DNA of 60,326 nt, the filler included, from an uncultured Myxococcia bacterium (GTDB taxonomy: Bacteria; CAZTWC01): assembly GCA_964617105.1 (NCBI GenBank). It is 4 parts of 4 records of this genome, joined end to end, with 100 filler letters (N's around TTAATTAATTAA, not from the genome) between each part and the next. Parts side by side here need not be neighbours in the genome. Positions count along the whole stretch, not along the records: positions 45,928 to 60,326 come from CAZTWC010000070.1; 3 more parts are not named here. One strand, written 5' to 3'. Below the pieces are notes generated by a model. It ran no database searches and was not told the origin of the DNA. It saw only the letters and a list, made by a program, of their open reading frames with translations. A program made the position numbers and the translations under genes. Shown piece after piece: positions 15,369-60,326 of the stretch. Numbering within the stretch: position 1 is the first letter of the stretch; every line of letters starts with the position of its first letter.

Positions 15369-15468
15369 NNNNNNNNNNNNNNNNNNNNNNNNNNNNNNNN
15401 NNNNNNNNNNNNTTAATTAATTAANNNNNNNNNNNNNNNNNNNNNNNNNNNNNNNNNNNNNNNNNNNN
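15369..15468. other. Artificial contig linker
   Basis: N44-TTAATTAATTAA-N44 (stops in all six frames); identical to the other two linkers. Confidence 0.98.
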
Positions 15469-21400: not shown

Positions 21401-23072
21401 AAAAGTTATCACCTTCGGTGGTTACAACATTGGTAATTTCAATGTTGCCATCCGCTGGTACGGTAAAAGGATAATCGGTGGTTTTATTGACCTTTAATGT
21501 TCCGGTTTGTGCGGCTTCTACATTGATCGATTTCATTTTAACGGTTATTTCAAAGCCTTTTTGGGTTACTGTGCCGTCTTTTTTAAGAATCGGGGTGCCG
21601 GCCTTGGGAAAGTCAAAGGTTAGAGAGGGTTTGATATCGGTGAGAGTGAAAGTAACCTCAGAACTTCTGGTTTTGTTCCCGCTGGTGTCTTGAACTTCTA
21701 CCACCAGGGTATGGGTTCCTTTTTTTAGAGTTACAAATAAAAAGGCAAAGTTGCTATTTTGTTGGAACTGGGCAGGTTTTGATTTAATAATCTGATCGGT
21801 TTTACCCTCATTTACTATTAAGGTAATATTATCAGATTTTTCCACACCAGTGGTTTTACCTTCAACCTTAAAATCCACTAAGGTTTGTTTATCAGCGGGA
21901 TAGGTTACAGTAACAGTTGGTGGAACTGAATCCACCAGCACTGTCTTTTCTGCTATGGTGCCAGATTTCTTTTTATCAGGTGATTCCACTACTACTGCAA
22001 GGGTTATTTCTCCCTCGGGTAAAGTTATATTTTTTAGCAATGCGGTGCCGTTGCCATCCACTGTGGCAGTTTTTTCAACTTTATCGTTAATTTTAAATGA
22101 AACAGCACTGTCTTCTACGCAGGATGTGTATATTGTAAAGTCAATTTGCATTCCGGCAGTTTTATTATCTTTATCATCCTCAGCCAGATATTTATCTTTA
22201 TTGGGAGTCATGTTTACGTTGCATTGACCAATATCCACCAGGAGTTTGCCCATACTGGATACAGATTTTTTATCATTAGTTTCGGTCTTCACCTGCAGGA
22301 TATTTTCTCCCTGTTCCAGTTTGACATCAGCAAAAGAGACACTGTTTATATCTTTTTTATCCTTTTTTTCTTTGAAAGCCAGTGTGCCTTTGTATTCTTT
22401 ACTGTTGCTCTTTACCGTTAATGTCACATCGTTACCTGGTTCAACACCAACGCATTCTACTTCAACCTTGACTTGTAATCCTTCCAGATCTTTTTTGGTA
22501 TCGTTATCCCTGGTTAACAGTTTGTCGGTGTCAACCTCAGGAGCAACAATTTTACAATATAAAACATCATTAACATACTGAATTGAGAAGACTTTTTCCA
22601 GTGTGACCTCTTTTTCTTCCTCCTCAGTAGCCCAGGCGATTAAACCTAGAAAACCGCTTTTAGGCATTTTAAAGGTGGCGCTTAGTTTGAGGTCGTGAAA
22701 TCCGGTTGGTATTTTTAAACCAGTTGCTTGCAATTGTCTACCTTTCTCTGTGGTGCTCTCCTGGGCAAGATTCTTTGGAAATCCATCAATTGCCGTTCCA
22801 TCTAAAGAAAGTTTAACAGATACATCAACTTTGTCGGGGATGTTAAAGAAATTAAAAGAAAAATCTATGTCGAGAACATCCGTGGTGCTGGTATCTTTGT
22901 CATCTTTACTGGTAAACACCAGGCCTTCGGTCCGATCTTCGAACAGGTCCAATTTTACCAAGGGATTATCCAGGGGCTTTTTATTAGCCTTGCCACTATC
23001 GCTGCTACAACCCATCAAGCCCAGGAACAATCCTAAAACTAATAACATTACCAATAATTTAATACTTTTCAC
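15469..23072 (-). CDS. Giant surface lipoprotein with tandem bacterial Ig-like repeats (3'-truncated by contig end)
   Basis: AAGGAG RBS then GTG at 23072; lipobox LMGC; many ~90-100 aa repeats ending I-x-A-x-D-x-AGN...DT-x-x-P; an FN3-like LKWTAP segment near the truncated end. Confidence 0.88.
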
Positions 23073-30710: not shown

Positions 30711-30810
30711 NNNNNNNNNNNNNNNNNNNNNNNNNNNNNNNNNNNNNNNNNNNNTTAATTAATTAANNNNNNNNNNNNNNNNNNNNNNNNNNNNNNNNNN
30801 NNNNNNNNNN
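30711..30810. other. Artificial contig linker
   Basis: N44-TTAATTAATTAA-N44. Confidence 0.98.
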
Positions 30811-45827: not shown

Positions 45828-45927
45828 NNNNNNNNNNNNNNNNNNNNNNNNNNNNNNNNNNNNNNNNNNNNTTAATTAATTAANNNNNNNNNNNNNNNNN
45901 NNNNNNNNNNNNNNNNNNNNNNNNNNN
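45828..45927. other. Artificial contig linker
   Basis: N44-TTAATTAATTAA-N44. Confidence 0.98.
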
Positions 45928-45928
45928 A

Positions 45929-46591
45929 AAAAATGAACAGAAAGAAGTTCCTCAACCAAAGGTTGAAGAAACTGAAGAACGCCAAATCGGGGATAGACTA
46001 GACCATGATGAGGGAAAAAAACCCAAAAAACAACTGTTCTTAATAGCGCTTTTAGTGGTGGCAATTCTGGGGGCAGCAATCTGGTTTTTCGGCTCTAAAC
46101 CAAAGGAATCAACCCCTGAAGAAAACCTGGCTGTTATTACTAATACAGCAAATTCTTTGGCCCAAAACGTAAAAAAAACTGAACAAATCAAACCAACAGT
46201 CAAACCGAAACCAGTAGATAAAAAGAAAAAGAAAAACCTGGATAAAAAACCGCTTAAGAAAACCAGTAAACGCCCTAAAAAACCTGAAATAGAAACCAAA
46301 GAGAGGCAAAAACCCCAAAAAATCTCGGATAAACCAGCAAAAAAACTCTATCAAGAGGCTGATGCAGAGTTTGTAAATGGTAATTTGGAGAGGGCCATTT
46401 CTTTATATGAGCAGACTATTATTGCCAATCCAACCCTGACCGGCGCCTTCAAAAAATTGGGGATGTGTTACATGCAAAAGGGTGACTCGCTTCAGGCAAA
46501 AAAATATTTTCAACTGTATCTGCAGGCCAAACCCCTGGCTCGGGATAAAAACATCATCAAAGGGATGATGGAGAGTCTGGAGGCAAAATAG
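45929..46591 (+). CDS. Membrane-anchored TPR protein, C-terminal fragment (5'-truncated)
   Basis: Frame is open from the contig start; one TM helix, a K/P-rich linker and TPRs (AISLYEQTIIANP, AKKYFQLYLQAKP). Confidence 0.75.
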   Translation, partial: KNEQKEVPQPKVEETEERQIGDRLDHDEGKKPKKQLFLIALLVVAILGAAIWFFGSKPKESTPEENLAVITNTANSLAQNVKKTEQIKPTVKPKPVDKKKKKNLDKKPLKKTSKRPKKPEIETKERQKPQKISDKPAKKLYQEADAEFVNGNLERAISLYEQTIIANPTLTGAFKKLGMCYMQKGDSLQAKKYFQLYLQAKPLARDKNIIKGMMESLEAK

Positions 46592-46689
46592 CTTCCCTCC
46601 AGCCACAATATGGCACACAAAAATAGATTTTACCCGCACCAAATGCTGAATCGGCCGGCCATGGAATGGGTAGAAAAAAGGAGGAGATA

Positions 46690-47913
46690 ATGGCCACCAT
46701 CAATAAAAATTACTCAAAACTGTCTGCCAATTACCTTTTTCCGGAGATTGCCCGGCGGGCAGCCCTTTTTGTGGAAAAAAATCCATCAGTGGAACTGCTG
46801 CGTCTGGGCATAGGCGATACCACCGAGCCCATTCCAGAACCCATAATTCAAGGCCTCAGACAGGGAGTGGAGGCGTTGACCAAGATAGAGACCTACAACG
46901 GTTACAATCAGGGCGAAGGGGATATCAGGCTGCGGGCAGCCCTGGCCAGCCACTACCTTCCCCTGGGAGTGAAGTTGACTCCGGATGATATTTTCGTAAG
47001 TGATGGAGCCAAGTCAGACGCTGGCAATATCCAGTCTATATTTGGCGCCCAAAATGTGGTGGCAGTTCAAGATCCGGCCTACCCGGTTTATGTGGACAGT
47101 AATGTCATTGCCGGTCGGACCGGCCAGTTTGAGGAAGGCCGGTACCAGGGTCTGGTTTATATGCCCTGCCTGGCCCAAAACAATTTTTTTCCCCATTTGC
47201 CAGAACAAAAAGTTGACCTGATCTACCTCTGTTTTCCTAATAACCCCACTGGAGCGGTGGCCAACAAAAAACAATTGAAAGAGTTTGTAGATTATGCCCT
47301 AAAGCACCGGGCAGTGATCATTTTTGATGCTGCTTATGCTGCTTTTATTAACGATCCAGAGTTGCCTCGCAGTATCTTTGAGATAGAGGGTGCAAAAAAA
47401 TGTGCCATCGAGATCAACAGTTTTTCCAAAACCGCCGGGTTTACCGGGGTCAGGCTGGGTTGGTCGGTGGTGCCCGTGGAACTTGAAGTTGAAGATGGGC
47501 CGCCAGGAAAGATAAACCAGATGTGGAGACGCCGGCAAAATACCCTGTTTAACGGTGCCTCCAATATTGTGCAGCAGGGAGGGCTGGCGGTTTTGAGCCC
47601 CCAGGGGCAAAAGGCAGTGACCAAACTGGTAGAATTCTACATGGGAAATGCCGCCATTATTAGACAGGGGATGATAGAGGCAGGTTTTCGGGTTTATGGC
47701 GGCGACAATGCCCCTTATGTGTGGATGGAAACACCGTCACAATTAGATTCCTGGCAGTTTTTTGATAAAATGCTGGAAAAGGCTGGCGTAGTGGGAACAC
47801 CGGGTAGTGGTTTCGGCCCCAGCGGCCAGGGATATTTTCGGCTCAGCGCTTTTGGCAATCGAGAAAATATCCAGCGGGCGGTGAAGAGGATCCAGGATGG
47901 TCTACGATTCTAA
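46690..47913 (+). CDS. dapL: LL-diaminopimelate aminotransferase
   Basis: NYLFPEI, LGIGDTTEP, SDGAKSD, DPAYPVYVD, CFPNNPTG, SFSKTAGFTGVRLG and TPGSGFGPSGQGYFRLSAF. Confidence 0.96.
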   Translation: MATINKNYSKLSANYLFPEIARRAALFVEKNPSVELLRLGIGDTTEPIPEPIIQGLRQGVEALTKIETYNGYNQGEGDIRLRAALASHYLPLGVKLTPDDIFVSDGAKSDAGNIQSIFGAQNVVAVQDPAYPVYVDSNVIAGRTGQFEEGRYQGLVYMPCLAQNNFFPHLPEQKVDLIYLCFPNNPTGAVANKKQLKEFVDYALKHRAVIIFDAAYAAFINDPELPRSIFEIEGAKKCAIEINSFSKTAGFTGVRLGWSVVPVELEVEDGPPGKINQMWRRRQNTLFNGASNIVQQGGLAVLSPQGQKAVTKLVEFYMGNAAIIRQGMIEAGFRVYGGDNAPYVWMETPSQLDSWQFFDKMLEKAGVVGTPGSGFGPSGQGYFRLSAFGNRENIQRAVKRIQDGLRF

Positions 47914-48172
47914 AAGTCACGCTGAAAAAACAATGATAGAATATGGTATAATAAAAGATAATGAAGTTTATCAAGCTGTGTCTAATGGAGAAGTTATTGA
48001 ATCCTATTATGACGATAAGCCATATCCATCAGTACTAATATATGGTGAAACCAAAATAGGAAAACCTCTTCATGTTGTATGTGCCTATAATAAAGCTGAT
48101 AATCTGTCAATAGTAGTAACAGTATATCGTCCCAATCCAAACTTGTGGATAGATTTTAAGAAAAGGAAATAA
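47897..48172 (+). CDS. DUF4258 family protein (RelE/MqsR-like putative toxin)
   Basis: HA...M, GEVIESYYDDKPYPSVLIYG, PLHVVCA and VTVYRPNP..W. Confidence 0.8.
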   Translation: MVYDSKSHAEKTMIEYGIIKDNEVYQAVSNGEVIESYYDDKPYPSVLIYGETKIGKPLHVVCAYNKADNLSIVVTVYRPNPNLWIDFKKRK

Positions 48173-48173
48173 C

Positions 48174-48407
48174 ATGAAATGCGTTATTTGTCAGGGTGAA
48201 AATATTGTTACTAAAAAAATCAAAGAACCAATCAATAAAGGTAATGATATCATCCACGTCATTTTAAAAATTCCTGTCTGCCAAAACTGTGGGGAGAAAT
48301 ATTATCCCCGCGCAACGATACAAATGCTTGAAAAACTTGAAGTGCAAGTGCAAAACAGCGAACTTCATTTAAAAGAGGTGGGCAAAGTCCTGGAGTATGT
48401 TGCATAA
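48174..48407 (+). CDS. YgiT-type zinc-finger protein (MqsA N-terminal-like)
   Basis: MKCVIC...VCQNCGEKYY; begins 1 nt after the DUF4258 stop. Confidence 0.85.
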   Translation: MKCVICQGENIVTKKIKEPINKGNDIIHVILKIPVCQNCGEKYYPRATIQMLEKLEVQVQNSELHLKEVGKVLEYVA

Positions 48408-48408
48408 T

Positions 48409-51378
48409 TCAATCGGCTAAACCCCAAAAAAGCACCGGATGAACAGCGGGCAGGTTACAGTGCCTCTCTATCTGAAACCGGCATGCACCACAGGGAGAGA
48501 TAACCAGATCAGCCCCGGTTTGACCTATAGCCTCTATTTTGGCGGCTGCCAATTTTTCAGATATATGGCTTACATCGGCCTTGAGGCCGAAGCTACCAGC
48601 CATGCCACAGCAACTCTCGGACAAAACTTCCACTTCCAGGCCAGGGACTTGAGCCAACAATTGTAAATTTGCCGATAAATCCTCTCCCTCCGATTGGTGG
48701 CAAGGTATGTGATAGGCGGCTTTCAGTTTGGTATCGGCAGATTTTGGCTGGACATTAGCATCTGTCAACCCGGCATTAAAATCCCGGGAATTAAACCCCT
48801 GGCGCCGGGTTAATATCTCTCCCAAATAACTTAAGGATCCAGCCGGAATCCGGGCTGTTTTTCCCACCAGACTGGGTAGCAGTTCCGCCAGACTCTCCCC
48901 ACAACTTGGGCAGGTGTAAACCACCTGAAAACCTTTTTCCAACCAGGGCGCCATAGTCTCAGCAATACTACGGGCCTGTCGCCTGGCTACAGTAGTTTCT
49001 CCAGCATACCAGGCGCTAAAACCGCAGCAGGAAAAAGAGGGCTGCACTACCTGAAAACCCTTTTGCTTAAGCAGGGCAACCGCAGGTAATGACTCCTCAT
49101 TAAAAGCCACATAACTGGCAAAACATCCGGGGAAATAGACCACCTTTGGGTAGGTTTGCTCTGAGTAAGTTCGAACTGATTTGGTTTGACCTAAATGAGC
49201 AGGCTGGCTTTTACCTAACTTGCTACCAGAGGTCAGTTTTAAAAGTAATCTGTTTAGATCCGTAATTTTTTTGGTTTTAGGAAAAAATTCTGCCTCCGGG
49301 TTGACCCCCAGTCGTTGAAATAGTTGAAGGTCTCTATACTGACGCAAATTTGAGCGCAAATTTGATGACAGAGGACCCAGCAGATGGCTATATTTTAATG
49401 GCATAGCCGGGTCGCTCATGGCCAGAGAGAACAAAGCGCTCCCCTGACGATGCACGCGGTATTCCCGCCAAAGGCGAACCAATTTTCTGGTATCCACCCG
49501 GCTGGGACACAGTCGTTGGCATTTACCGCAACCCAAGCAGGTGCTAAAAGCCTTTTTAGCCTCTAGGGAAGATAGAAGTTGCCGGGAGGATAATTGCCTG
49601 AGCAGGTTGTGCCTGGCTCGAGGTAAATTAATTTCCTCTCTTTCAGCCAGATAGGAGGGACAAAAATCGCGGCACTTGCCGCAGCCATGACATTTTTCCA
49701 CCTCTGCACTAGATATGGGTATGTTAGAGTCAACCTGGCGATTATACTTAAAATATTGGCTAAAAACCTGACTCAAGGCGTCCCTGGCCCGGGGCTGGCC
49801 GGTTTCCAGCAATTTCACTCCCCGATTAAGGATATTTAAAGGATCAAACAGATGCTTTAAGGGATAAAACAAGCGCTTAAATGGTTGGGGGTAGATACCC
49901 TGAAAATAGGCACTGCGCAACCTACCCAATCCGTGCTCACCACTTAAAACTCCCCCCATCTCTTTTACCAGCAAGGCGTGCTGTTCAAAGAGTTCTATCA
50001 TGATATTCAGGTCTCTTTGTCCTCTTACCTGGAAAAAGGGGCGAATATGAATATTGCCGCTGGCAGCATGCCCATATATAAAGGTTTTAATACCGTATTG
50101 CCCTAAGATCTCCTCCATGGCAGTTAAAAAAACCGACAGATTCTCAATCGGCAAAGCGGCATCTTCGATAAGGGCAATGGGCGTCCCCTTCCCTTCCAGC
50201 CGGTGCACCAGTCCCACCGCCATTTTTCGAAGACTCCAAAGGGCTGCTTGTTCCTCTGGTGATTGGTGCACTGTGGAGGAGAGGTTGAATTTTGAGGCTA
50301 TTGACTGGGCCTGTTTGGCTTTTTTACCATCCGCGCCTTCAAACTCTATATAATATAGGTATAGGAACTCATTTTGCAAAAGTGACTGCAGCCGTTGATA
50401 ACCCGCATTGAGTCCGGTTTCCAGGATATAGCGATGCAATAACTCGATACGGCTCGGCTGCAACGAATAGATCGATTGGATAAATTGCGCCGCCTTTTTT
50501 AAGTCCCTGGCCATAGCTATAACCAGGCAACTCTTTTCTGGTTTATCCTCCAGTTTCAAACCAGCCTCAGTAATTATGGCTAAAGTTCCCTCTGATGCGG
50601 CCAGCACCTGCTGAGGATGAAAATATCGGTTTTTCACTACATTTTTCAGGTTAAACGAGGAGGAATCTTTTAAAAATGAATTGGCCATTGGCTCAATCAT
50701 GGTCCGACAATCCATATACAAAGCAGACACCTGCCGCCAGAGATCTCTCTCTTTTTCACTCAAACCTCCAAATTCATCCTGTCCCGGGGCAGCGGTTTTC
50801 CATTTTTTCCGTTCCGGCCGCAAACCTAAAGCCGATAAGGGCAAACTTCTGGCTTGAAGCCTCTCTCCTCTGCCACTGATAAGGGAAAGGCTATGTAAGT
50901 GATCTCTGGTGGTGCCGTATTTGACATCCCGGGATCCACCAGAATTGTTGGCAATCATTCCGCCAATAGTACAATAGGCAGAAGATGAGGGATCAGGAGC
51001 AAACATCAAGTTGTAATTGGCAAGTTGGCGGTTGAGAATATCAAGATTTACCCCCGGCTGCACTGTGGCCCGCTTATTATCTGGATCCACAGCCAGAATT
51101 TTATTCATATACACGCTCATATCCACGATTATACCGGGTCCCAGGCCCTGACCGGCCAGGGATGAACCGCCGCCGCGGCAGGTGATAGTCACTCCATGTT
51201 CGCCAGCTAACTTAACCAGGGAAACCAATTGTTCCTCCTTTTTAGGAAAAACTATGGCCATTGGTTCAATCTGAAAAATCGAGGCATCGCAACTGTATAT
51301 TTTTCTGGCGCTCAGGCTATGGTGTAAATCAGAACCAAAAATCTCTTGCAGCGATTTTAGCAATCTGTTTTTATCCAT
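48409..51378 (-). CDS. FAD-linked oxidase fused to Fe-S and CCG domains (GlcD/GlcF/YdiJ-like)
   Basis: RGGGSSLAGQ, PDPSS..CTIGGMIANNSGG, SEGTL, GHA.SGNIH, SGEHGLG, two CxxCxxCxxxCP motifs and two CCG motifs. Confidence 0.92.
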   Translation of the reverse strand: MDKNRLLKSLQEIFGSDLHHSLSARKIYSCDASIFQIEPMAIVFPKKEEQLVSLVKLAGEHGVTITCRGGGSSLAGQGLGPGIIVDMSVYMNKILAVDPDNKRATVQPGVNLDILNRQLANYNLMFAPDPSSSAYCTIGGMIANNSGGSRDVKYGTTRDHLHSLSLISGRGERLQARSLPLSALGLRPERKKWKTAAPGQDEFGGLSEKERDLWRQVSALYMDCRTMIEPMANSFLKDSSSFNLKNVVKNRYFHPQQVLAASEGTLAIITEAGLKLEDKPEKSCLVIAMARDLKKAAQFIQSIYSLQPSRIELLHRYILETGLNAGYQRLQSLLQNEFLYLYYIEFEGADGKKAKQAQSIASKFNLSSTVHQSPEEQAALWSLRKMAVGLVHRLEGKGTPIALIEDAALPIENLSVFLTAMEEILGQYGIKTFIYGHAASGNIHIRPFFQVRGQRDLNIMIELFEQHALLVKEMGGVLSGEHGLGRLRSAYFQGIYPQPFKRLFYPLKHLFDPLNILNRGVKLLETGQPRARDALSQVFSQYFKYNRQVDSNIPISSAEVEKCHGCGKCRDFCPSYLAEREEINLPRARHNLLRQLSSRQLLSSLEAKKAFSTCLGCGKCQRLCPSRVDTRKLVRLWREYRVHRQGSALFSLAMSDPAMPLKYSHLLGPLSSNLRSNLRQYRDLQLFQRLGVNPEAEFFPKTKKITDLNRLLLKLTSGSKLGKSQPAHLGQTKSVRTYSEQTYPKVVYFPGCFASYVAFNEESLPAVALLKQKGFQVVQPSFSCCGFSAWYAGETTVARRQARSIAETMAPWLEKGFQVVYTCPSCGESLAELLPSLVGKTARIPAGSLSYLGEILTRRQGFNSRDFNAGLTDANVQPKSADTKLKAAYHIPCHQSEGEDLSANLQLLAQVPGLEVEVLSESCCGMAGSFGLKADVSHISEKLAAAKIEAIGQTGADLVISPCGACRFQIERHCNLPAVHPVLFWGLAD

Positions 51379-51577
51379 TTTTATCCTATTCCTCATTACA
51401 ACAACGGCCTTGCCAATGCTGTTTTTAGTAAACTATCCTTGCAAATATTTTCAGGATATACTAATTATTAATATAATGGGTTGATTGGGAACTATCAACC
51501 TGTTTATCTAACAATTGGTGTCCATCTGGGAATAAACTGAGACACTAAACCTGCTAAATCTGGGGAAGGAGCAAAAA

Positions 51578-52117
51578 ATGGCCGGTTCAATAAACAAAGT
51601 TATTTTAATTGGAAATTTGGGTGCAGACCCTGATAGCCGTTATACTCAAGGAGGAATGGCGGTTACCAGATTAAGCGTGGCTACCGGCGAAAGGTTTAAA
51701 AACCGGGATGGCAACATGGAGGAGAAAACCGAATGGCACCGGGTGGTAACTTTTAATAAAACTGCGGAGAATTGCGCCAAGTTTTTACGCAAGGGTAGTA
51801 AAATATATATTGAGGGCCGAATCCAAACCAGAAAATACGAAGCCAAGGATGGCAGCACCCGCTATACCACCGAAGTGGTAGCCAATAATGTGACCTTTTT
51901 AGACCGGAGTGGTGCAGGACAGCAGGACAGGCCACCCCAGCAACAATACCAGCAGCAGGGTGGATATAACCAGCAAAACCAACCAGGTCGATATGGCAGA
52001 CAACAACAGTCTGAGCGCCAGGAGGAAAAACCATTCGACAACAAGTTCACTGATGATTACGATTTTCCCACTCCAGGTGGCGGTAACGATGATTTCGGAG
52101 ACGATATCCCCATGTAA
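51578..52117 (+). CDS. ssb: Single-stranded DNA-binding protein
   Basis: INKVILIGNLGADP, TEWHRVV, YIEGRIQTR and acidic tail DDIPM. Confidence 0.98.
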   Translation: MAGSINKVILIGNLGADPDSRYTQGGMAVTRLSVATGERFKNRDGNMEEKTEWHRVVTFNKTAENCAKFLRKGSKIYIEGRIQTRKYEAKDGSTRYTTEVVANNVTFLDRSGAGQQDRPPQQQYQQQGGYNQQNQPGRYGRQQQSERQEEKPFDNKFTDDYDFPTPGGGNDDFGDDIPM

Positions 52118-52126
52118 GGATCTCGG

Positions 52127-53410
52127 CTAACAAAAACTATTTTTATCTTGGGATGAAAGCAAAATCTCCACCGCCTCCAGGTTTGGTTTTATTATTGGAG
52201 GCGGCTGCAGATTCTTACGAACAGCATCAATATCTTTCAAGCCGCTGCCAGTAGCCAAAATCACTATCTTTTCTTCAGCATCAATATCCCCGGAAGCAGC
52301 CATTTTTTTCAATCCCGCCAAAGTAACGGCTCCGGCTGGCTCAGCAAAAATACCACAATTGGAGGCCATCTCTCTTTGGGCAAATAAAATATCGCGATCT
52401 TTTACTACTACGAAACTGCCGTGGCTATCTCTTACCGCTCTAAGCGCCTTGATAGCGTCTCGGGGATAACCCACCGAGATACTGTCCGCAACCGTGGGCG
52501 TTTCCACCCGCGGGACAATCTTTTCTGTGTCCTTAAAAAATGCTTCAGCAATCACATTGGAGCCCGCAGCCTGCACCCCGTATATTTTGGGCATTTGAGG
52601 TATAAATCCCAACTGTTTGAGGTCATAAAAACCCTTCTTAACCCCGCCAATTATACAGCCATCACCAACCGGCACAAAAACCCGGTCAATGCGGCCAAAT
52701 TTCATCTGTTCCGCTATCTCCAGGGCCACAGTTTTTTTCCCTTCGCTCAAATAGGGATTGTAAGCAGTATTACGGCAGTACCAGCCATATTTTTCACTCA
52801 CCTGCAGGCAAAGATCAAAGGCCTGATCGTAGGTGCCATCCACCATAATAATATTGGCGCCAAAGACTTGTAGTTGCGCCACCTTGGCTATTGGCGCCGA
52901 TTTGGGGATAAAAATTACGGTAGAAATTCCAGCCGCAGCAGCCAACCCGGCCAGAGAAGAGGCGGCATTACCAGTGCTAGCAGCGGTGATCATATTCTGT
53001 CCCTGGTCCAATGCCAGGGCTATGGCTATGGCTGAGGCACGATCTTTCAAAGAACCGGTGGGGTTGCGGGTATCATCTTTAATATAAAGATTTTTCAAGC
53101 CGATGCTCTCTCCCATTCTTTTTGCCCGGTAAAGCGGGGTCCAGCCGATTTGCATATCCAGAGAGGCAGGCTTGTTCTCCACCGGCAAAACAAACAGATA
53201 GCGCCATAGGCTCATCTCTTTACTTTGCGCTAAAAATTGCTTGGGTTTAATAGCACCAATAAATGGATAGTGGTAGATCACGTCCAGGATACCAATATAA
53301 CCACACTTAGAGCAGGTATATTTCACCTCCTGACGATTAAATACGGCGCCGCACTTTACACATTTGAGACCGGCAATTTTTTCATGGTTTTTCAGCATGA
53401 ATTTAGCCAT
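52127..53410 (-). CDS. thrC: Threonine synthase (or close PLP fold-II paralog) with N-terminal Zn ribbon
   Basis: CVKC..CSKC, GWTPL, NPTGSLKDR, ASTGNAASS, EGKKT, VPVGDG and FAEPA. Confidence 0.8.
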   Translation of the reverse strand: MAKFMLKNHEKIAGLKCVKCGAVFNRQEVKYTCSKCGYIGILDVIYHYPFIGAIKPKQFLAQSKEMSLWRYLFVLPVENKPASLDMQIGWTPLYRAKRMGESIGLKNLYIKDDTRNPTGSLKDRASAIAIALALDQGQNMITAASTGNAASSLAGLAAAAGISTVIFIPKSAPIAKVAQLQVFGANIIMVDGTYDQAFDLCLQVSEKYGWYCRNTAYNPYLSEGKKTVALEIAEQMKFGRIDRVFVPVGDGCIIGGVKKGFYDLKQLGFIPQMPKIYGVQAAGSNVIAEAFFKDTEKIVPRVETPTVADSISVGYPRDAIKALRAVRDSHGSFVVVKDRDILFAQREMASNCGIFAEPAGAVTLAGLKKMAASGDIDAEEKIVILATGSGLKDIDAVRKNLQPPPIIKPNLEAVEILLSSQDKNSFC

Positions 53411-53486
53411 CAGTATCTCCTGTAGTCGTTAAATTGTCATCCGGAAACCGTTCTCTGGTAAAACAAAGTGGATTCTCAGACGGACA

Positions 53487-56243
53487 CTAAGTAAAATCTC
53501 CTATGGTCTGGTTTATCAACCGGCGGACTACCTTTACCACCCTCTCCATAAAGGAATAGTTACGAAAGGTGTGAGCCATCAGGTACATAGGAATACGATT
53601 AATGATATAGTCACGCAGGCAGAGGTTGTATCCCCGGTCCCACAACTTTTTATCCAGTTTTATCCCACTGCTTTTCTCCAGAGCCTTTCGGTGCACCTCA
53701 GAATAATGCAAAATCTCATCTTCTTTCACTTCCGGCAGGAGCACAAAAGAGAGCAGTTCTACCAGGTCGCGCTGGGGCAAATGCAAGGTGGCCAATTCCC
53801 AGTCGTAGGCACACAGCCGCCAGTCCCCGTCCGGCAAAGGCCGCAAAGCGATATTCCTGGGGTTAAAATCGTTGTGCACCAGGGTACGGGGCATTTTTTC
53901 GATCTCTTGCCACCAGATTTCAACACTTTTAATTTGATTTATAATAGCAGACTTCTCCCCCTGGGTGATAATCTCGGGAAACTCTTCGGAGGCATGAAAA
54001 ATCAGCGACTCCCATAAATCTTTCATCCTGCCCATCAAATTCGCCGTGGGATATTGACCCAGCCAAGACTGTGACTTCAACTCTTCCTCTCGTCCCAACC
54101 AGATAGCATGGATCTCGGCAATGCCTTTCAAGGCGGCCTCTATATGCTGCTTCTGCCAGACTCCCGGGCTATTGGCAGTGTTGAGCAACTCCATATTCTC
54201 CAATTTTTCCATAACCACCACATAGGCTTCACGCTCGTGGTTGCTATAGCAATGGTAAATTTTAGGAACATGGCGGATAAAACGCGGATCCTTTTGGCTG
54301 TATACTGCCAACTCCCGGAGGTGGCAATTTTTAAAACCGGTCAAATCCTTATACCTGGCATGGGATGATGCCAACCGGCCACCACACATAGTTGCCATAC
54401 TGTTTATCATCAGGATCACTTCATCATCCAGTGGTTTTACTTTAACCAGCACATCGGTATGTGACTTCTCCTGCAAATTAAGGTGGTTGATCCGCAGAGG
54501 ATACAGTCCTACCAGTTTTCGCACCTTTCTGGCGGTCAACTGGGTTATGATGGAACTGCCCATCTCAAAATCTAGTGGTTCAATCGCAACCACCTCAAGA
54601 GAATCGTTATTAAAAAAGCGACGCAGAGGTTCCTGGAAAAAAGTTTTGTTCAAGTCATCCTTGCCAAACCATTTTACTGGCCGGTTTCGACCCAGACGGT
54701 CGTGAGCTGTGGCGAACTGACCGCTGGCAATGGCCGCCAGGGTAGAGATATCCAGAGCCAGGCAAAAACCGGCGATAATCTCGGCCAGGCGAAAAACCTT
54801 TCTAGCCGATGTACAGCCAATGATATCCAGGGCGTCCTGCTGCACCGGCAGATGAGTTCCGCCGCCAACAGTACCAATAATCAGGCTGGGAAGCATCAAA
54901 CTGGCGTACAAACCCTTTTCTGATGCCTGCAGGTTCAATTGACCCAAACTAGACTCATGGATACTGGCGATATCTTGACCGGTGGCAGTATATATGGCGG
55001 CAATAACGTTGGCGATATTGATGTTGTAACCGATCATACCAGCCTGGATACTGCCCATTAAAAATCCCTGGTTGCACAGTTCTATGTGCTGGGGTGAAAT
55101 TTTCAGCACCTGTTCCAAAATCTCCCGCTTAATAAAACATTCCGCTGTTACCCGGATGCCACGGCCAGACATAAAAGAGAGGTAATTTACTTTTTTATCT
55201 CCACTCAAATTGGCTTCGATAAAAAAATTATCCACTACAATATCGGCAAAGTGCTGCATCTGCTCCATTATCCACTGGCAGGCTTTCCAGGTGCAAACCG
55301 TAGTCATGTTCTGGCCGGCAGCATCACCGGTTTCATATAAAAAACGGACATGCACCATGTTGCCGATCTGAAAAGGTTCGACCTGGGTCAAATGGGCGTG
55401 ACAGGAAACCAAACCGATTTGAGCGCTGATCTCCTCCTGGTGATCGCGTATCCATTTGGTAAAAAGAAAAGCACCGTTCATATCGGTGAGAATAAACATG
55501 GGAACCCGCAGCATTTGTTGGCGGATAACCCGGGTAGTTACGCCGCCGGAACGGGAGATAGCAGTGGCTCCGCGAGTGGCAGAGGCCACCAACGCCCCCT
55601 CGGTGGTTGCAAAGGGAGCATAAATAAACTCTTTAACAGCCTGGCCCTTGAACCAAAGCGGGCCCGCCAATCCTACCGGTATCTCCACTGAGCCAATCAT
55701 GTTTTCAATATTACCGGTTAATTTTTCAATAGATAGAGAAGTGGACTCAAAAGTTTTCAAGTCATTGCCGGTGGTCTGGCGGATAAACTCCAACCTTTTC
55801 AGGCGAGCCTCCTCAGTGTAATGCCCCCGGGCCGGTACTCGCGGTATTTTATCGGGAGGGTCCTTCTGCACCATGGATTTCGGCTTATCCTCGGCAGACA
55901 CCTCTTGCAGCAATTGCCAGAGGGTAGCCCTGGTTTCACCATCAACCGCCTCCATCCCCAACACGGTGCAGTTTCCCTTTTCCATCGCCTGTTTGTGGAT
56001 AATCACCACCTTGGTGAGTCGCTTGTGATAAAAAAAGGTGCCCAAAAAGAAGTTCTCTAAGGTTTCGCCAATCTCGGGAAGATCTTTGGGGGCCAGGTCG
56101 GTAACCGCCAACCGCAATCCGGTTTCGGAAACATCCTGCACCTCACAGACCAATGGTGCCTGGTTAACCATCAACACGGCAAACAGGTCGCTTAACCGGG
56201 ATGGCACCAATCTCCTTTTTACCCGTTTTTCACGAACAGACAT
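53487..56243 (-). CDS. Tripartite fusion: PilZ-like + class I HMG-CoA reductase-like + APH/choline-kinase-like phosphotransferase
   Basis: PilZ: RVKRR...DVSETG. HMGR: ENMIGSVEIPVGLAGP, ATTEGALVAS, TGDAAGQNM, SGDKK, TGQD, GTVGGGT, H. Kinase: VKVK, HNDFNPRN, YDWE. Confidence 0.85.
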   Translation of the reverse strand: MSVREKRVKRRLVPSRLSDLFAVLMVNQAPLVCEVQDVSETGLRLAVTDLAPKDLPEIGETLENFFLGTFFYHKRLTKVVIIHKQAMEKGNCTVLGMEAVDGETRATLWQLLQEVSAEDKPKSMVQKDPPDKIPRVPARGHYTEEARLKRLEFIRQTTGNDLKTFESTSLSIEKLTGNIENMIGSVEIPVGLAGPLWFKGQAVKEFIYAPFATTEGALVASATRGATAISRSGGVTTRVIRQQMLRVPMFILTDMNGAFLFTKWIRDHQEEISAQIGLVSCHAHLTQVEPFQIGNMVHVRFLYETGDAAGQNMTTVCTWKACQWIMEQMQHFADIVVDNFFIEANLSGDKKVNYLSFMSGRGIRVTAECFIKREILEQVLKISPQHIELCNQGFLMGSIQAGMIGYNINIANVIAAIYTATGQDIASIHESSLGQLNLQASEKGLYASLMLPSLIIGTVGGGTHLPVQQDALDIIGCTSARKVFRLAEIIAGFCLALDISTLAAIASGQFATAHDRLGRNRPVKWFGKDDLNKTFFQEPLRRFFNNDSLEVVAIEPLDFEMGSSIITQLTARKVRKLVGLYPLRINHLNLQEKSHTDVLVKVKPLDDEVILMINSMATMCGGRLASSHARYKDLTGFKNCHLRELAVYSQKDPRFIRHVPKIYHCYSNHEREAYVVVMEKLENMELLNTANSPGVWQKQHIEAALKGIAEIHAIWLGREEELKSQSWLGQYPTANLMGRMKDLWESLIFHASEEFPEIITQGEKSAIINQIKSVEIWWQEIEKMPRTLVHNDFNPRNIALRPLPDGDWRLCAYDWELATLHLPQRDLVELLSFVLLPEVKEDEILHYSEVHRKALEKSSGIKLDKKLWDRGYNLCLRDYIINRIPMYLMAHTFRNYSFMERVVKVVRRLINQTIGDFT

Positions 56244-56268
56244 CTGTTTTCATCCTTTCTTAAAGATG

Positions 56269-58563
56269 TTAATTCCCAGATGGACTCTTTGGCGCAAATA
56301 CTTTTAACAGCAATGGTAACATTACCAGATCGCCGTAAATAGCGGCCAAAGCCGCCACCGTGGTCAATAGGCCGAAATAAAAAACTGTGGCCACATCGGC
56401 TAACATCAGCACCGGATAACCAATCACCAGCAACAAAGTGGTCATTATTGCTGCCGTTCCGGCCCGTTTAAAAGTCCTTTTCAGACAGGCTTCCCAACTC
56501 AAACCATCCTTTTCCGCCTGTTGCCAGTAATGGAGAAAATGGATAGTATCATCAATGGAAATACCCAATACTATGGCTCCCACTGTGGCAGTTCCAATAT
56601 CCAGGTCGATTCCCAGAATTCCCATTGCTCCCAGCATAAAAAGCACCGGAAAACAATTGGGCACAATGGAGATCAAGGCCAATCGCAATGAGCGCAGCCA
56701 GGTTAACATAAGCACAAAGATTATAGCCAGGGCCAGAAAAAAACTGCGAACCTGAGAGGTAGTCACATAGTCGATAATCGAAACATACAGGGGCGGATAT
56801 CCGCTGATCACTAATTTTCCCGCCTTTCCCATGGTCTCTTTTGCCAGATTTTCCAACTGCTTAAAGAGCCCCGCCATGGTTTTGGCGCTAATCATTTTGC
56901 CCAGCAGAGTTATCCGCCCTAAGTTTCCATCCTGGGTTATCACCGGGGCCAGGAAATTCTCCTGGAATTTTTTTCCCTTGCGATTCCACTCCAGAGGTTC
57001 TGATTCTAAAAGCAATTTCAACTGGGCCACCAGAGGCGCAGAGATTACCTGGTCTGGTTTCAACTCTGCACCCATCACCTGGGCCATACGGCGATAGATG
57101 GAATAGAGACCAAAACCATCACTAACCAGAGGCATTTCTTTGGCTCGATCCACAAACTTCTGGGTAGCGGCCAATATTTCCGGGCTATCCGCTTTCAACC
57201 CCCTGGCGGGCACAACCGTAAATTCCAAAGGGCTATAATAACCCCACCCCTTCTCTATGGTCAAATGGTCTTTTACCACCTGATGATCATCGGGAAAATA
57301 CCCCAAAGTATAGGTGTCGGTTTTAACCTGAAAGGCAAATATCAAAGCCACCAGCACCAACAACACTGAGAGCCCCGCCAACTGACCGGGCTTTTCTCTT
57401 AGCCAAGAATCCACCTTGTTCAAAATTTTACTGGCCAGCAGCAATCGCGGTTGAGTGCTATTTTCCTTTAGTTTGTAAAAAACCAGGGTCATAAAAATCA
57501 TGCTGGCGACAAAGGCTATACCCACTCCCAGAGCCGCATAAATCCCCAAATGCTGGATCACTGCCATGGGTGAAGATACCAAAGCCATAAATCCGCAAAT
57601 AGTGGTGATGGTGGTAAACAGACAAGGGAGAAAAACCCGTTTTACCGTGGCATAGACAATCTCACCTCGGCTACTCTCCTGGTTTTTACTTAGTTCCTGA
57701 AAAAATATAGCCGGAAAATGGATGGCGTCCGCTATGCCCAGCACTATTATTAAAGTTGGCAAAACAATGGTAACCATATTTATTTGATGGTCCAACAGGC
57801 CATAAACTCCCAGAGCCCCCAGGGTGCCGGTCAAAATAACCCCCAGAATGGCGGCCACTAAAAGCAGGCTTTTAAAAAACCACCACACCGCCACAAACAT
57901 TACCAGATAAGTTATCCCTACAAACAGGCCAAAATCATGCTGAGTAATGATGTTCAGCCCCGAATAGATTACCCCGATACCGCCCATGGGATGTTCGGTT
58001 TCTCCCATCACCTGGCCGGTGATCTGGCGAACCTGCCCTACAATGGCGTCTCGCCGCAGGTCTATATCCGCCATGGTCTCCATCTGTGCCCAAAGCATGG
58101 CCCGAGTCCCATCCTTACTGATAAAGCGGCCAATCATCAGCGGATTGGCAACCAAGCGTTTCTTGAGAGCCGCCAGTTCATATTGGGCAGAGGGCAGCGG
58201 CCTGGGCACAGCGTAATCAAACTTGAGCCCTTTTCCGGTTTCATAAAAATCCCGGGCTGATAACAGAGAATGAACCGAATCCACTCCCTCGACATTTTCC
58301 AACTCTTTACTCAGTTGCTCAATTTTTTGCAACAAAGATGCATTGAAAATTCCCTGGGGGTGATATATCTGGATAAGAATCACCTCATCGTTGCCAAAAT
58401 GTTTCTGAAAACGGTTGTAGTTCTGTAGTTGAGGGTCGGTTTTCAAAAACCACACGGTGAGAGCGTTATCGGGCCTAACTGCGGTTTTCAAGCCCGGCAT
58501 AACCGCCAGGATGGCCACCACAAACAGGGCAAAGGCCAGCCAGCGCCAAGACAGCAGTCTCAT
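56269..58563 (-). CDS. MMPL/RND-family transporter
   Basis: Two repeats of a periplasmic loop plus TM bundle; GIADAIH and GISIDDTIH motifs. The start overlaps the upstream stop (TAATG). Confidence 0.92.
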   Translation of the reverse strand: MRLLSWRWLAFALFVVAILAVMPGLKTAVRPDNALTVWFLKTDPQLQNYNRFQKHFGNDEVILIQIYHPQGIFNASLLQKIEQLSKELENVEGVDSVHSLLSARDFYETGKGLKFDYAVPRPLPSAQYELAALKKRLVANPLMIGRFISKDGTRAMLWAQMETMADIDLRRDAIVGQVRQITGQVMGETEHPMGGIGVIYSGLNIITQHDFGLFVGITYLVMFVAVWWFFKSLLLVAAILGVILTGTLGALGVYGLLDHQINMVTIVLPTLIIVLGIADAIHFPAIFFQELSKNQESSRGEIVYATVKRVFLPCLFTTITTICGFMALVSSPMAVIQHLGIYAALGVGIAFVASMIFMTLVFYKLKENSTQPRLLLASKILNKVDSWLREKPGQLAGLSVLLVLVALIFAFQVKTDTYTLGYFPDDHQVVKDHLTIEKGWGYYSPLEFTVVPARGLKADSPEILAATQKFVDRAKEMPLVSDGFGLYSIYRRMAQVMGAELKPDQVISAPLVAQLKLLLESEPLEWNRKGKKFQENFLAPVITQDGNLGRITLLGKMISAKTMAGLFKQLENLAKETMGKAGKLVISGYPPLYVSIIDYVTTSQVRSFFLALAIIFVLMLTWLRSLRLALISIVPNCFPVLFMLGAMGILGIDLDIGTATVGAIVLGISIDDTIHFLHYWQQAEKDGLSWEACLKRTFKRAGTAAIMTTLLLVIGYPVLMLADVATVFYFGLLTTVAALAAIYGDLVMLPLLLKVFAPKSPSGN

Positions 58564-59681
58564 TAGACCACCTCGTAAACATGAAAAGATTGATAAAACC
58601 AACTACGGTCCTCTGTCCACAACTGCCGGGCAATCTGATCCAAAGAGCGTAGTTGTTGAGCCAGGCTCTCCGACCTGCCCCGTGGAACTAAAAGACTCCA
58701 ATAGGCAATGCGTCCCTGGCCTTGAAACCGATCAGCCATCTCCGCCAACAGGAGATCCGCTGCCTCCTGGGTCATATACTCAAAAATATCGGAAAAATTG
58801 GCTTTGGAAAAGGTGCCGGGCGCCTCCTCCCTGAGCACACTCTCCACCTGGCCGGTAACCACCGCTATCCGGGGTAAAAGTTGTTTCAACTTGTAAAAAT
58901 TGGCTTTTTGCAAATAGAGCGGGCCTTGCTCCAGGTTGAAAAACCGGGACGTCAGAAAAAACTGCAAATAAAAATTAGTGTTAAGGGGAAGTTTGGTGCA
59001 AGCGTATCTAAAACGGGAGAAAAAGTAATCTCCAACCTCATCTAATTTAACATACTTGAACTGGGCCGGGTCCCGCCCGGTTTTGGCCATCATCTCCCTG
59101 CCAAAATACCATTTGAATTTCTCTTGAAAAGTTTTGGTGGCAAATTTTTCCTTAAAAAAGGCTTCCTGCTCCAAGAGAGTTGGCCGGGTAAAAAGTTGCT
59201 CCACCACTTCCGGCGGGTGGATTTTAGCCAGGTGTTGTTTCTGAAAATCGATAAAATAACGCTCTAATTTGCCGCACAAAAGCAAACCATGAGAAATATC
59301 CTGCTGGTGCCGGTCCCAGTAATCAATTGCTCCTGGAGGGAGATCTTGCCTAATCTTTTCATAGTAGTAGAGACGATCTGCCCCCTGGTTCACCCCCATC
59401 AGACAGGTAAACTCCTGATAATCGAGACTTTTGATGCCCGCCAGTTTCAAATTTAGCAAAGCGCTCTGGCAGGGATTGATATCAATCGCCACCACCTGCC
59501 TGGGCTCCTGCAGCAGCAAGGCCAATGCGTTGTCACCTGCACTGATTATAGAGAGCACCCGGTCATCAGAGTTTATCTCCAGGGCTTTTTGCAGCAGCAA
59601 ATGATCCTCCCACACCATGGAGTAACGCACCTGGTCCCAGGAAATATCTTCAAGCACATCTTTTTTAGTATCATGAGCCAT
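58563..59681 (-). CDS. DUF3419 / BtaA-like SAM-dependent 3-amino-3-carboxypropyltransferase family protein
   Basis: RYSMVWED, VLSIISAGDNALALL, AIDINPCQ, GKLERYF, SDIFEYM, GRIAYW and DRSWFY. Confidence 0.85.
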   Translation of the reverse strand: MAHDTKKDVLEDISWDQVRYSMVWEDHLLLQKALEINSDDRVLSIISAGDNALALLLQEPRQVVAIDINPCQSALLNLKLAGIKSLDYQEFTCLMGVNQGADRLYYYEKIRQDLPPGAIDYWDRHQQDISHGLLLCGKLERYFIDFQKQHLAKIHPPEVVEQLFTRPTLLEQEAFFKEKFATKTFQEKFKWYFGREMMAKTGRDPAQFKYVKLDEVGDYFFSRFRYACTKLPLNTNFYLQFFLTSRFFNLEQGPLYLQKANFYKLKQLLPRIAVVTGQVESVLREEAPGTFSKANFSDIFEYMTQEAADLLLAEMADRFQGQGRIAYWSLLVPRGRSESLAQQLRSLDQIARQLWTEDRSWFYQSFHVYEVV

Positions 59682-59813
59682 TTTTTAATCTTATCCTTCT
59701 GAAAAGTTAAGATCCCGGCAGGGGATATCGGAAGGATTTATTGTATCACATTACACCTTATGCTACAATAATTCTGAGCGTCAAAACTCTCCAATTTTCG
59801 GACAGAAACTACC

Positions 59814-60326
59814 ATGGCTGATTCAGACAATTTCGCTTCTATAATCTTGGCACAGGCCCGCGCTCATGCACAGCGTAAGGCTCTGGTGATCCCCAAAAAA
59901 TGGGAGCAGGGAAAAGTAGTGGAGGAGGAAAATATAACCTTCGGCCAGTTTGTGGACCGGGTGGAATCCCTTGCCCGCGGGTTGAAAGAGAAAGGCTTTT
60001 TACCCGACCAACGGGCGGTAGTGCTCTTTCCCCTGTCTATAGACCTCTATGCCCTGACCATGGCTCTATTGTTAAATGGCATGGCCCTGGTGCTCATCGA
60101 TACCGGCATGGGACATAAAAAACTTTTAAAATGTATCAATTTTGCCAAACCAGACCTGATGGTCAGTATCCATGCCCTACTGAAATTCTGGCCTATATTG
60201 CCCGCTCTCTGGCCAATCAAAGGCAAGTACGCGGTAGATAAAAAATTCTTTGGCATCCAACCATTTTCTAAACTTTACCAAAAATCTGGCCAAAAAGTGG
60301 AAATCCTCTCCCGCCATCCAGATGAT
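59814..60326 (+). CDS. AMP-binding (acyl-CoA ligase / OleC-like) enzyme, N-terminal part (runs off window)
   Basis: Manual translation MADSDNFASII...ITFGQFVDRVESLARGLKEKGF...LYALTMALLLNGMALVLIDTGMG; no stop before the window end, so absent from the ORF track. Confidence 0.8.
   Translation, partial: MADSDNFASIILAQARAHAQRKALVIPKKWEQGKVVEEENITFGQFVDRVESLARGLKEKGFLPDQRAVVLFPLSIDLYALTMALLLNGMALVLIDTGMGHKKLLKCINFAKPDLMVSIHALLKFWPILPALWPIKGKYAVDKKFFGIQPFSKLYQKSGQKVEILSRHPDD

Follow-up and report, generated by a model that had tools for sequence, protein, structure and literature searches.

Gene organization of the locus

The sequence analysed here is a stretch of 60,326 nucleotides (nt) from an uncultured Myxococcia bacterium (assembly GCA_964617105.1), hereafter called the window. 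It carries near its 3' end an operon whose last gene codes for a 918-residue fusion of a PilZ domain, a reductase domain of the HMG-CoA reductase (HMGR) fold and a small-molecule kinase domain (53487-56243, minus strand; open reading frame (ORF), translation and Pfam). The window consists of four contigs (C66, C67, C68 and C70) of a 489-contig genome, with a completeness of 96.5% and a contamination of 3.35%, and physical linkage to the operon holds only for contig C70 (window positions 45928-60326).

The first gene of the operon (58563-59681, minus strand) codes for a protein of the DUF3419 family, i.e. the S-adenosylmethionine (SAM)-dependent BtaA family. It is followed by a gene coding for an MMPL protein, an HAE3-type transporter of the resistance-nodulation-division (RND) type and probable lipid exporter (56269-58563, minus strand), and then by the fusion gene. 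The junction of the first two genes reads GGTCTAATGAGA: the last A of the DUF3419 stop codon TAA is also the first A of an ATG at 58563. Because of this TAATG overlap and of an AGGTGG motif just upstream of that ATG, the MMPL gene probably starts at 58563 (765 residues) and not at the TTG at 58602 chosen by the ORF caller. The MMPL and fusion genes are separated by 25 nt. On the other side, 132 nt from the DUF3419 gene, a divergent gene codes for the N-terminal 171 residues of an ANL ligase of the PRK09274 type (59814-60326, plus strand; Pfam AMP-binding), its 3' end being open at the contig end. The intergenic region (59682-59813) is the presumed home of both promoters. It contains a single weak sigma-70-like match (59745-59772, plus strand), a count at chance level for this region, and consensus promoter and terminator scans gave counts no better than chance. 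The ORF calls and the sequence itself confirmed the layout, the overlap and both spacings given in a first-pass annotation of this DNA, and support its proposal of a single co-directional operon (DUF3419, MMPL and fusion) facing a divergent acid-activating ligase.

The reductase domain is probably not an HMG-CoA reductase

The central domain of the fusion (residues 148-519; 54687-55802, minus strand) has the HMG-CoA_red fold (Pfam, E 1.9e-108) and FcrA-type pocket substitutions. FcrA, a homologue of class I HMGR described in 2025 and represented by proteins of Natronomonas pharaonis and 'Ca. Promineifilum breve' (Pb-FcrA), uses NADPH to reduce fatty acyl-CoA substrates of at least C14 to the fatty alcohols; HMG-CoA is not reduced, and simvastatin does not inhibit the enzyme (PMC11948995). 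It retains the catalytic Glu559, Lys691, Asp767 and His866 and has a Glu for Ser684, a small residue for the HMG-binding Lys and a bulky residue for Leu862, the Ser684 and Leu862 substitutions being linked to long alkyl chains. In the same paper, FcrA enzymes are put at 57-77% of the bacterial proteins called 'class I HMGR', many of them acting in non-wax-ester pathways yet to be identified (PMC11948995).

Alignments of the fusion to solved HMGRs and to 79 related loci showed that the catalytic residues E215, K350, D424 and H514 are kept, and this tetrad is invariant in 20 sequences and in all 80 aligned rows. The discriminating pocket positions are E343 (Ser684), G393 (HMG-binding Lys) and F510 (Leu862); the fusion thus has the Glu, small and bulky residues of an FcrA pocket, Phe being the bulky one. 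The HMG-binding Lys is printed as Lys795 in PMC11948995; it is presumably Lys735. In the alignment to the 79 loci, conserved features are a Glu where HMGR has Ser684 and an aromatic residue where it has Leu862. In addition, the residue spacing of the fusion agrees with that printed for FcrA of N. pharaonis, E360/K367/G411/D441/W528/H532 (PMC11948995). We had also considered these pocket residues as a mark setting the fusion apart from 48 'HMGR-only' bacterial loci, and rejected this, as the same Glu and non-Lys residues occur there. Since these comparators are of FcrA type by the description in PMC11948995, the pocket argument separates the fusion from true HMGRs and not from FcrA.

Profile scores point in the same direction. 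The fusion reaches 291.4 bits on TIGR00533, under the curated class I HMGR cut-off of 441.8; it matches the solved HMGR 6hr7 at 259.6 bits. The gene content of the genome also agrees with a non-mevalonate role. IspH of the methylerythritol phosphate (MEP) pathway is present and the fusion is the only gene with a PF00368 domain, while no HMG-CoA synthase, mevalonate kinase or diphosphomevalonate decarboxylase above cut-off, and no wax ester synthase/diacylglycerol acyltransferase (WS/DGAT), were found in this 96.5% complete genome. One gene on contig C26 (6657-7577, minus strand) is HMG-CoA-synthase-like or FabH-like, with 98.6 bits, far under the cut-off. The domain had been labelled HMGR in the first-pass annotation; with the pocket Ser and Lys replaced, the TIGR00533 score under its cut-off and no pathway partners above cut-off, it is probably not an HMG-CoA reductase, as judged from its sequence.

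We built a quick maximum-likelihood tree of the reductase domains (80 rows; the partial locus L034 was left out, and no archaeal or eukaryotic HMGR outgroup was included). The 32 fusion rows and two Streptomyces rows form one side of a branch with a support of 100% in the Shimodaira-Hasegawa-like approximate likelihood ratio test (SH-aLRT). The unfused reductases from cluster loci make up a 7-row clade, and the other 39 rows, including a Promineifilaceae sequence, a further clade. The rows nearest to the window by tree path are L004, L005, L006, L007 and L038 (L numbers denote individual loci), L038 having the highest identity.

The flanking domains of the fusion: a predicted cyclic di-GMP receptor and a kinase

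Cyclic di-GMP (c-di-GMP) is a biofilm signal, and its PilZ receptors are six-stranded barrels with the motifs RxxxR and (D/N)xSxxG. The N-terminal region of the fusion (residues 1-120; 55884-56243, minus strand) combines such a barrel in its structural model with both motifs, RxxxR at R7-R11 and DxSxxG at D37-G42, where it reads DVSETG. The AlphaFold2 (AF2) model of residues 1-140 has a predicted local distance difference test (pLDDT) value of 86.9, and in a Foldseek comparison its top matches were without exception PilZ structures containing c-di-GMP (3kyf, 5y6g, 5kgo, 4xrn, 4rt0 and BcsA). The Pfam PilZ model did not match the fusion at E<=0.05; it matches three of 20 aligned relatives. R7 and R11 are conserved in at least 90% of 52 sequences, and some relatives have lost the motifs. 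Thus, at the level of sequence and modelled fold, a predicted c-di-GMP receptor domain heads the fusion, which bears out the link to c-di-GMP made in the first-pass annotation.

The C-terminal domain (residues 642-853; 53685-54320, minus strand) is a small-molecule kinase domain related to APH, EcKL and choline kinases (Pfam). Its kinase motifs, the Brenner-type HNDFNPRN and DWE, are invariant in 20 sequences. The Choline_kinase Pfam model matches three of 20 relatives of the fusion.

The ligase gene probably continues on a second contig with further cluster genes

Using tblastn with cluster proteins of related loci, we found the remainder of the system on another contig of the same genome, C63 (locus L084). 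Contig C70 ends in codons for ...SRHPDD; an identical 12-mer is present at nt 66-77 of C63, where the ANL A3 motif, EALITFTSGSTGMPKG, comes next. The two ligase pieces cover complementary parts of the intact orthologue in L016 (residues 5-160 and 169-519). On NF006754 (PRK09274; cut-off 478 bits), the C70 piece scores 85.9 bits and the C63 piece 350.1 bits, as for a gene split over two contigs, and the intact L016 orthologue scores 507.9 bits, over the cut-off. The beginning of C63 appears to be an assembly artefact. In contigs of other public runs, the sequence matching C63 nt 1-79 runs into unrelated sequence, and one of these contigs starts at C63 nt 66 with a perfect match from there, so we consider the first 65 nt of C63 to be a chimeric end. 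The segment of nt 1-79, which encodes MNTVLVVVAHPDDE, looks as if the assembly had formed a chimera at a short word common to both sequences; we take MNTVLVVVAHPDDE to resemble the start of an LmbE/PIG-L-type deacetylase. On these sequence grounds, C70 probably continues into C63. The ligase had been expected to run on past the window; its remaining part probably lies on C63, and the stop at 60326 is the end of a contig.

The ligase had also been called OleC-like. The likeness is distant: scores on OleC models were 54.8, 41.7, 178 and 159 bits, with cut-offs of 850-900, and profile scans revealed no oleA, oleB or oleD on C70 or C63. PRK09274-type fatty-acid CoA ligase is thus a better name.

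Farther along C63 lie three more genes of the cluster. The first codes for a UbiA-like protein with both Asp-rich motifs (C63 7872-8822). The second codes for a 912-residue dikinase with PPDK_N and PEP-utilizers domains and the swivel His (C63 8853-11591), which scores 909 bits on NF004881 (cut-off 883) and whose best solved relatives are 5hv1/5fbs (270 bits). The third codes for a GNAT-like protein of 373 residues (C63 11596-12717), placed by atlas comparison in GNAT-type clusters (0.97) in which Acetyltransf_1 is found on 15-25% of the members. The UbiA-like and PEP-utilising partners that the first-pass annotation expected downstream are therefore on C63, and the CDP-alcohol transferases that it also expected occur in related loci.

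The cluster is conserved around the fusion in several phyla

Among 8000 candidates, 1099 proteins are relatives of the fusion at E<=0.001. Of the 120 clusters listed at 90% identity, at least 116 have a kinase Pfam domain beside PF00368 and three have the Pfam PilZ domain; the same reductase-kinase fusion is thus not peculiar to the window. We retained 80 genome loci, 31 of which match through the kinase domain (fusion loci) and 49 of which have an unfused reductase. The fusion loci belong to Myxococcota, Thermodesulfobacteriota, Bdellovibrionota, Planctomycetota, Entotheonella and metagenome-assembled genomes (MAGs) labelled Rickettsiales, to Gammaproteobacteria (Moraxellaceae, Oleispira, Bermanella, Ketobacter and Photorhabdus), and to Bacteroidota, Bacillota (Paenibacillus and Marinicrinis) and Actinomycetota (Streptomyces).

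We determined the occurrence of each partner family using tblastn with several representatives per family and a query coverage of at least 50%. The dikinase is encoded in 19 of the 31 fusion loci and four of the 49 unfused loci, and the UbiA-like protein in 18 and five, respectively. The corresponding numbers are 13 and seven for the ANL ligase, 12 and none for the CDP-alcohol transferase, 11 and four for the GNAT-like protein, nine and one for MMPL, seven and five for DUF3419, and five and none for a LolA-like protein. At least one of the dikinase, UbiA, GNAT-like and DUF3419 families is present in 23/31 fusion loci and 6/49 unfused loci; these six (L036, L037, L055, L057, L065 and L080) resemble the same cluster with an unfused reductase. 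Of the eight fusion loci devoid of the four marker families, four are on short contigs (L005, L012, L013 and L024), L013 having an MMPL match only. Since the same families recur around fusion relatives in other phyla, their association goes beyond chance.

The fullest clusters (L016, L011 and L021) code for a LolA-like protein, a 430-residue protein of unknown function, MMPL, the UbiA-like protein, the fusion, the dikinase, the GNAT-like protein, the ANL ligase and one or two members of the CDP-alcohol phosphatidyltransferase family. The latter resemble PssA and archaetidylserine synthase, with a weak CarS-like match (E 1.6e-4) for the second. In the Desulfobacterales locus L023, a phosphatidylserine decarboxylase gene (6394-7305, plus strand) lies between the UbiA-like and CDP-alcohol transferase genes, which hints at a serine-to-ethanolamine head group. 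A variant in Bacteroidota (L031 8506-11258, also L024 and L033) keeps the dikinase alongside the fusion, but an NTP_transf_5 nucleotidyltransferase, an NAD-dependent epimerase and a pair of thymidylate-kinase-like P-loop kinases stand where the UbiA and CDP-alcohol transferases are otherwise encoded. In Streptomyces (L018, S. hesseae; L019, S. mashuensis; L020 and L022), no cluster partner lies within 10 kb of the fusion, or of the closely related reductase found unfused in its stead. Neither mevalonate genes nor cluster partners were seen in the Streptomyces loci L018-L022, where ORF calls in high-GC DNA are unreliable.

Full-text literature searches returned no description of this cluster or of the fusion. 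The words kinase, phosphotransferase and PilZ are absent from the running text of PMC11948995, whose Fig. 4B (domain variants) and supplement lie outside that scope and may show such forms. A PilZ survey preprint does not mention a reductase or phosphotransferase.

DUF3419 and MMPL are accessory members

The DUF3419 protein matches PF11899 at positions 8-384 of 385 (E 1.5e-69) and so has the domain of BtaA; no NCBIfam or PDB entry matched it. The MMPL Pfam match (E 8e-21) has 74.8 bits against a gathering score of 20.5. The transporter is under every NCBIfam subfamily cut-off, including that of TIGR00921 (165 bits); its match to HpnN is weak, and it is closest to the HAE3 subfamily.

The first-pass annotation had centred on the joint presence of DUF3419, MMPL, the fusion and an ANL ligase. 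All four do occur together in five of the 31 fusion loci (L004, L006, L010, L028 and L038), three of which (L004, L006 and L038) are among the window's nearest tree rows, but DUF3419 and MMPL do not belong to the core, given their frequencies above; they are accessory members of the cluster.

One database protein, P0113, is a true fusion of DUF3419, reductase and kinase. No longer fused forms were found among proteins of 1608-4590 residues, which is weak evidence. Several other candidates were discarded. A second 'DUF3419' beside the dikinase belongs to a different family (direct comparison, E=5; GNAT-type clusters in the atlas), and had arisen because BLAST clustering lumped the two via a fused or adjacent pair in L032. 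Giant ORFs joining MMPL or DUF3419 to the reductase in L038, L006 and L008 are ORF artefacts, as the Pfam domains in frame are the reductase and kinase only.

A proposed pathway from fatty acids to alkyl phosphates

We slightly favour the view, built on sequence comparisons, that this region is one half of a conserved lipid biosynthesis and export system that would convert an activated fatty acid to an alkyl phosphate under the control of c-di-GMP. We infer the substrate, the reactions after reduction and the product from the domains and the conserved neighbourhood. The divergent ANL ligase would activate a long-chain fatty acid to acyl-CoA, which the FcrA-like domain would reduce to a fatty alcohol at the expense of NADPH. 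From this alcohol, the fused APH-type kinase domain may then make an alkyl phosphate, and the N-terminal PilZ domain would make the fusion step respond to c-di-GMP. The alkyl phosphate or the free alcohol might be built into a polar lipid by the UbiA-like, dikinase and GNAT-like (putative acyltransferase) proteins encoded on C63; the dikinase would add or move a phosphate, and CDP-alcohol transferases would join the assembly in other genomes. DUF3419 may attach a SAM-derived group, possibly straight onto the alcohol, as the P0113 fusion hints. Finally, the MMPL pump, with the LolA-like protein where present, would export the lipid from the inner membrane. A similar route of activation, reduction, phosphorylation, SAM-dependent modification and export had been put forward in the first-pass annotation. 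Activation, four-electron reduction, phosphorylation and export fit the domain content and the FcrA precedent; the BtaA-type reaction is putative.

The end product could belong to a new class of lipids, in which fatty alcohols or alkyl (di)phosphates are joined without a glycerol backbone and exported by MMPL, under the gating of c-di-GMP, for envelope remodelling in surface life. We advance this idea tentatively, as a possibility that is less probable than the formation of the alkyl phosphate itself. Joining may involve the UbiA-type transferase, perhaps with allylic diphosphates of 2-enoyl origin as intermediates; the pathway would then parallel phytol salvage and the assembly of archaeal ether lipids, but with fatty alcohols. 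Alternatively, CDP-alcohol transferases may yield alkyl-phospho-serine or alkyl-phospho-ethanolamine lipids, or DUF3419 may form an O-alkyl-homoserine that the GNAT-like enzyme then N-acylates.

Several observations weigh against the alkyl phosphate pathway. The join between C70 and C63 is inferred, with no bridging contig seen among the public-run contigs that match C63, and ~6.7 kb of unrelated genes lie between the two halves of the cluster. No cluster-type CDP-alcohol transferase was found in this genome, with a weak match on C26 only (22362-22661). Four long fusion loci (L007, L017, L018 and L019) are devoid of dikinase, UbiA, GNAT-like and DUF3419 genes, L007 and L017 having a LolA-like match only. 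The Firmicute and Desulfobacterales versions of the cluster have no ANL ligase, and these ligase-free forms and the Bacteroidota variant are as compatible with a small head-group alcohol as with a fatty one. At the Leu862 position, the fusion has Phe where FcrA has Trp, and the HMG-binding Lys position varies in the family (G/A/H/R/D/Q/E/P), so that the pocket may be of another size and, with it, the chain of another length. In the tree, built without a true HMGR outgroup, the fusion rows are the sister group of the clade containing the Promineifilaceae relative of the tested FcrA and do not fall within that clade. Lastly, UbiA would be poorly served by a saturated alkyl diphosphate as its donor.

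The principal alternative is a Kennedy-like pathway, in which a short or polar acyl-CoA would be reduced and the phosphate of the resulting small alcohol would be activated with a nucleotide; CDP-alcohol transferases or UbiA would then pass it to an existing lipid. The head group, and not the chain, would in that case be the new molecule. The choline-kinase/APH fold of the kinase, with Choline_kinase matches in some relatives, is in keeping with this, as are the CDP-alcohol transferases in 12/31 fusion loci, the nucleotidyltransferase and P-loop kinases of the Bacteroidota variant, and the residue at the Lys position, which is variable and at times charged; minimal versions devoid of ANL ligase would draw their CoA ester from central metabolism. 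However, the conserved Glu and aromatic residue at the Ser684 and Leu862 positions are of the FcrA type and tied to long alkyl chains (PMC11948995), the ligase belongs to a fatty-acid CoA ligase family, and the MMPL and LolA-like partners suggest a de novo lipid. We therefore regard a head-group pathway as rather improbable, though the best of the alternatives.

The fusion might also have an ordinary FcrA role, supplying fatty alcohols for wax esters or known glycerol ether lipids, with a regulatory or unrelated kinase domain. FcrA is widespread, and a role in feeding ether-lipid synthesis was proposed for it where WS/DGAT is missing (PMC11948995). This is unlikely here: no WS/DGAT was found in the genome, the catalytic motifs of the kinase are invariant, and the conserved partners are the dikinase, UbiA and CDP-alcohol transferases and not PlsC-like proteins or AGPS, for which no genome-wide search was made.

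In a non-canonical mevalonate route, an HMGR would act with a mevalonate kinase of the APH type and a phosphomevalonate kinase of the dikinase type to feed a UbiA prenyltransferase. This route would account for the intact PF00368 tetrad and for two phosphorylating enzymes and a prenyltransferase family in one cluster, but it is very unlikely given the replaced HMG-carboxylate-binding Ser and Lys, the low TIGR00533 score (291 bits), the presence of IspH with no HMG-CoA synthase or decarboxylase found above cut-off, and the inability of the tested FcrA to reduce HMG-CoA (PMC11948995). Weakest of all, and barely credible, is an ordinary pathway to diacylglyceryltrimethylhomoserine (DGTS, by BtaA) or to olefins or beta-lactones (by OleC), or a chance juxtaposition of four unrelated genes: DUF3419 does include BtaA and the ligase has its distant OleC matches, but these are at 54.8 and 178 bits on models with cut-offs of 850-900, no btaB or oleA/B/D was seen on C70 or C63, the neighbourhood is conserved across phyla, and the DUF3419-reductase-kinase fusion P0113 exists. 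The first-pass annotation had seen no btaB, oleA/B/D or other mevalonate genes, which holds for C70 in Pfam and NCBIfam scans, and a check for a match to an ordinary DGTS or olefin pathway, which would have undone the first proposal, or to mevalonate synthesis found none.

If the alkyl phosphate pathway is correct, the fusion and its conserved partners concretely define one of the non-wax FcrA-type pathways, with alkyl phosphate as the first testable product and a second-messenger switch built into the pathway enzyme, and the database labels 'HMG-CoA reductase/phosphotransferase' on these proteins would need correction. Should the product be a new envelope lipid, c-di-GMP signalling and the chemistry of membrane lipids would be directly connected. 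Cultured carriers amenable to deletion, such as Photorhabdus khanii and Paenibacillus oenotherae, are found in Photorhabdus, Paenibacillus, Marinicrinis and Streptomyces.

Other features of the contigs and of the genome

The remaining genes of C70 near the operon are of the housekeeping type (ThrC, SSB, a YdiJ-like FAD/FeS oxidoreductase and an aminotransferase). The YdiJ-like protein (48409-51396, minus strand) has 995 residues, with FAD-oxidase, 4Fe-4S and CCG domains, and is unrelated to the operon; it scores 330 bits on the D-2-hydroxyglutarate dehydrogenase model, with a cut-off of 1350. The contigs of the window are joined by N spacers (15369-15468, 30711-30810 and 45828-45927), and features across these joins are physically unlinked.

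On C63, the ligase gene's C-terminal portion is followed by genes for a DEAD-box helicase, an EF-G paralogue, an unknown protein of 238 residues, a TPR protein and a YfiR-like protein. These genes between the two halves are not conserved in the related loci. The YfiR-like periplasmic protein (DUF4154; TOL_0243 family; C63 7177-7788, plus strand) scores 98 bits, under the cut-off, and is encoded directly upstream of the UbiA-like protein; YfiR proteins of other bacteria act as regulators of a diguanylate cyclase.

The 40 genomes compared with this one are related at the domain level only, and the organism is seemingly without close sampled kin. Among these 40 genomes, one alone had a match to the reductase, and a weak one. 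The public runs that contain the stretch are labelled marine or seawater metagenomes.

Comparison with known systems

The transporter shares the MMPL Pfam domain with the MmpL/HpnN exporters and has HAE3 similarity, and a LolA-like gene is present in five of the 31 related loci; it differs in scoring under the curated subfamily cut-offs and in having no adjoining LolA-like gene here. The DUF3419 protein of the operon matches the domain of BtaA at full length, as in the BtaA/BtaB system for DGTS. Its partner enzymes differ, however: no BtaB methyltransferase was found on C70 or in the C63 cluster, no genome-wide search having been made, and DUF3419 is accessory (7/31 fusion loci). The C63 dikinase has the ATP-grasp, central and swivel-His domains of rifampin phosphotransferase (RPH) and of PigC/RedH, but it is far under their cut-offs (333 versus 999 bits for RPH and 325 versus 1300 bits for PigC).

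In phytol and farnesol salvage, two successive kinases feed UbiA-family transferases, and archaeal ether lipids are made by digeranylgeranylglyceryl phosphate (DGGGP) synthase, CarS and archaetidylserine synthase. The proposed pathway resembles these systems in its succession of alcohol, phosphate, possibly diphosphate and UbiA-family transfer, and in the CDP-alcohol transferases of the PssA/archaetidylserine-synthase type. In contrast, the kinases of the present cluster have unrelated folds (APH and PEP-synthase-like dikinase), a fatty acid and not an isoprenoid would supply the chain, and the cluster contains no glycerol-phosphate enzyme.

The fusion has its fold, NADPH motifs and catalytic residues in common with class I HMGRs (6hr7 and 1dq8), but its HMG-binding residues are replaced, its score is below the cut-off and no pathway partners were found above cut-off. 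It is closer to FcrA, with which it shares the PF00368 fold, the Glu/Lys/Asp/His tetrad, the acidic, small and aromatic pocket residues and genomes in which no mevalonate pathway was found. FcrA itself has a Lad or ACP domain or no additional domain, whereas the fusion has a PilZ domain at its N-terminus and an APH-type kinase at its C-terminus; its aromatic residue is Phe and not Trp, it falls in a separate clade and no WS/DGAT partner was found. The present analysis adds the link to FcrA, the second contig, the neighbourhood counts and the accessory status of DUF3419 and MMPL. The system is a real and conserved feature, and the known kinds to which it belongs are the FcrA-type reductases and the lipid biosynthesis and export operons.

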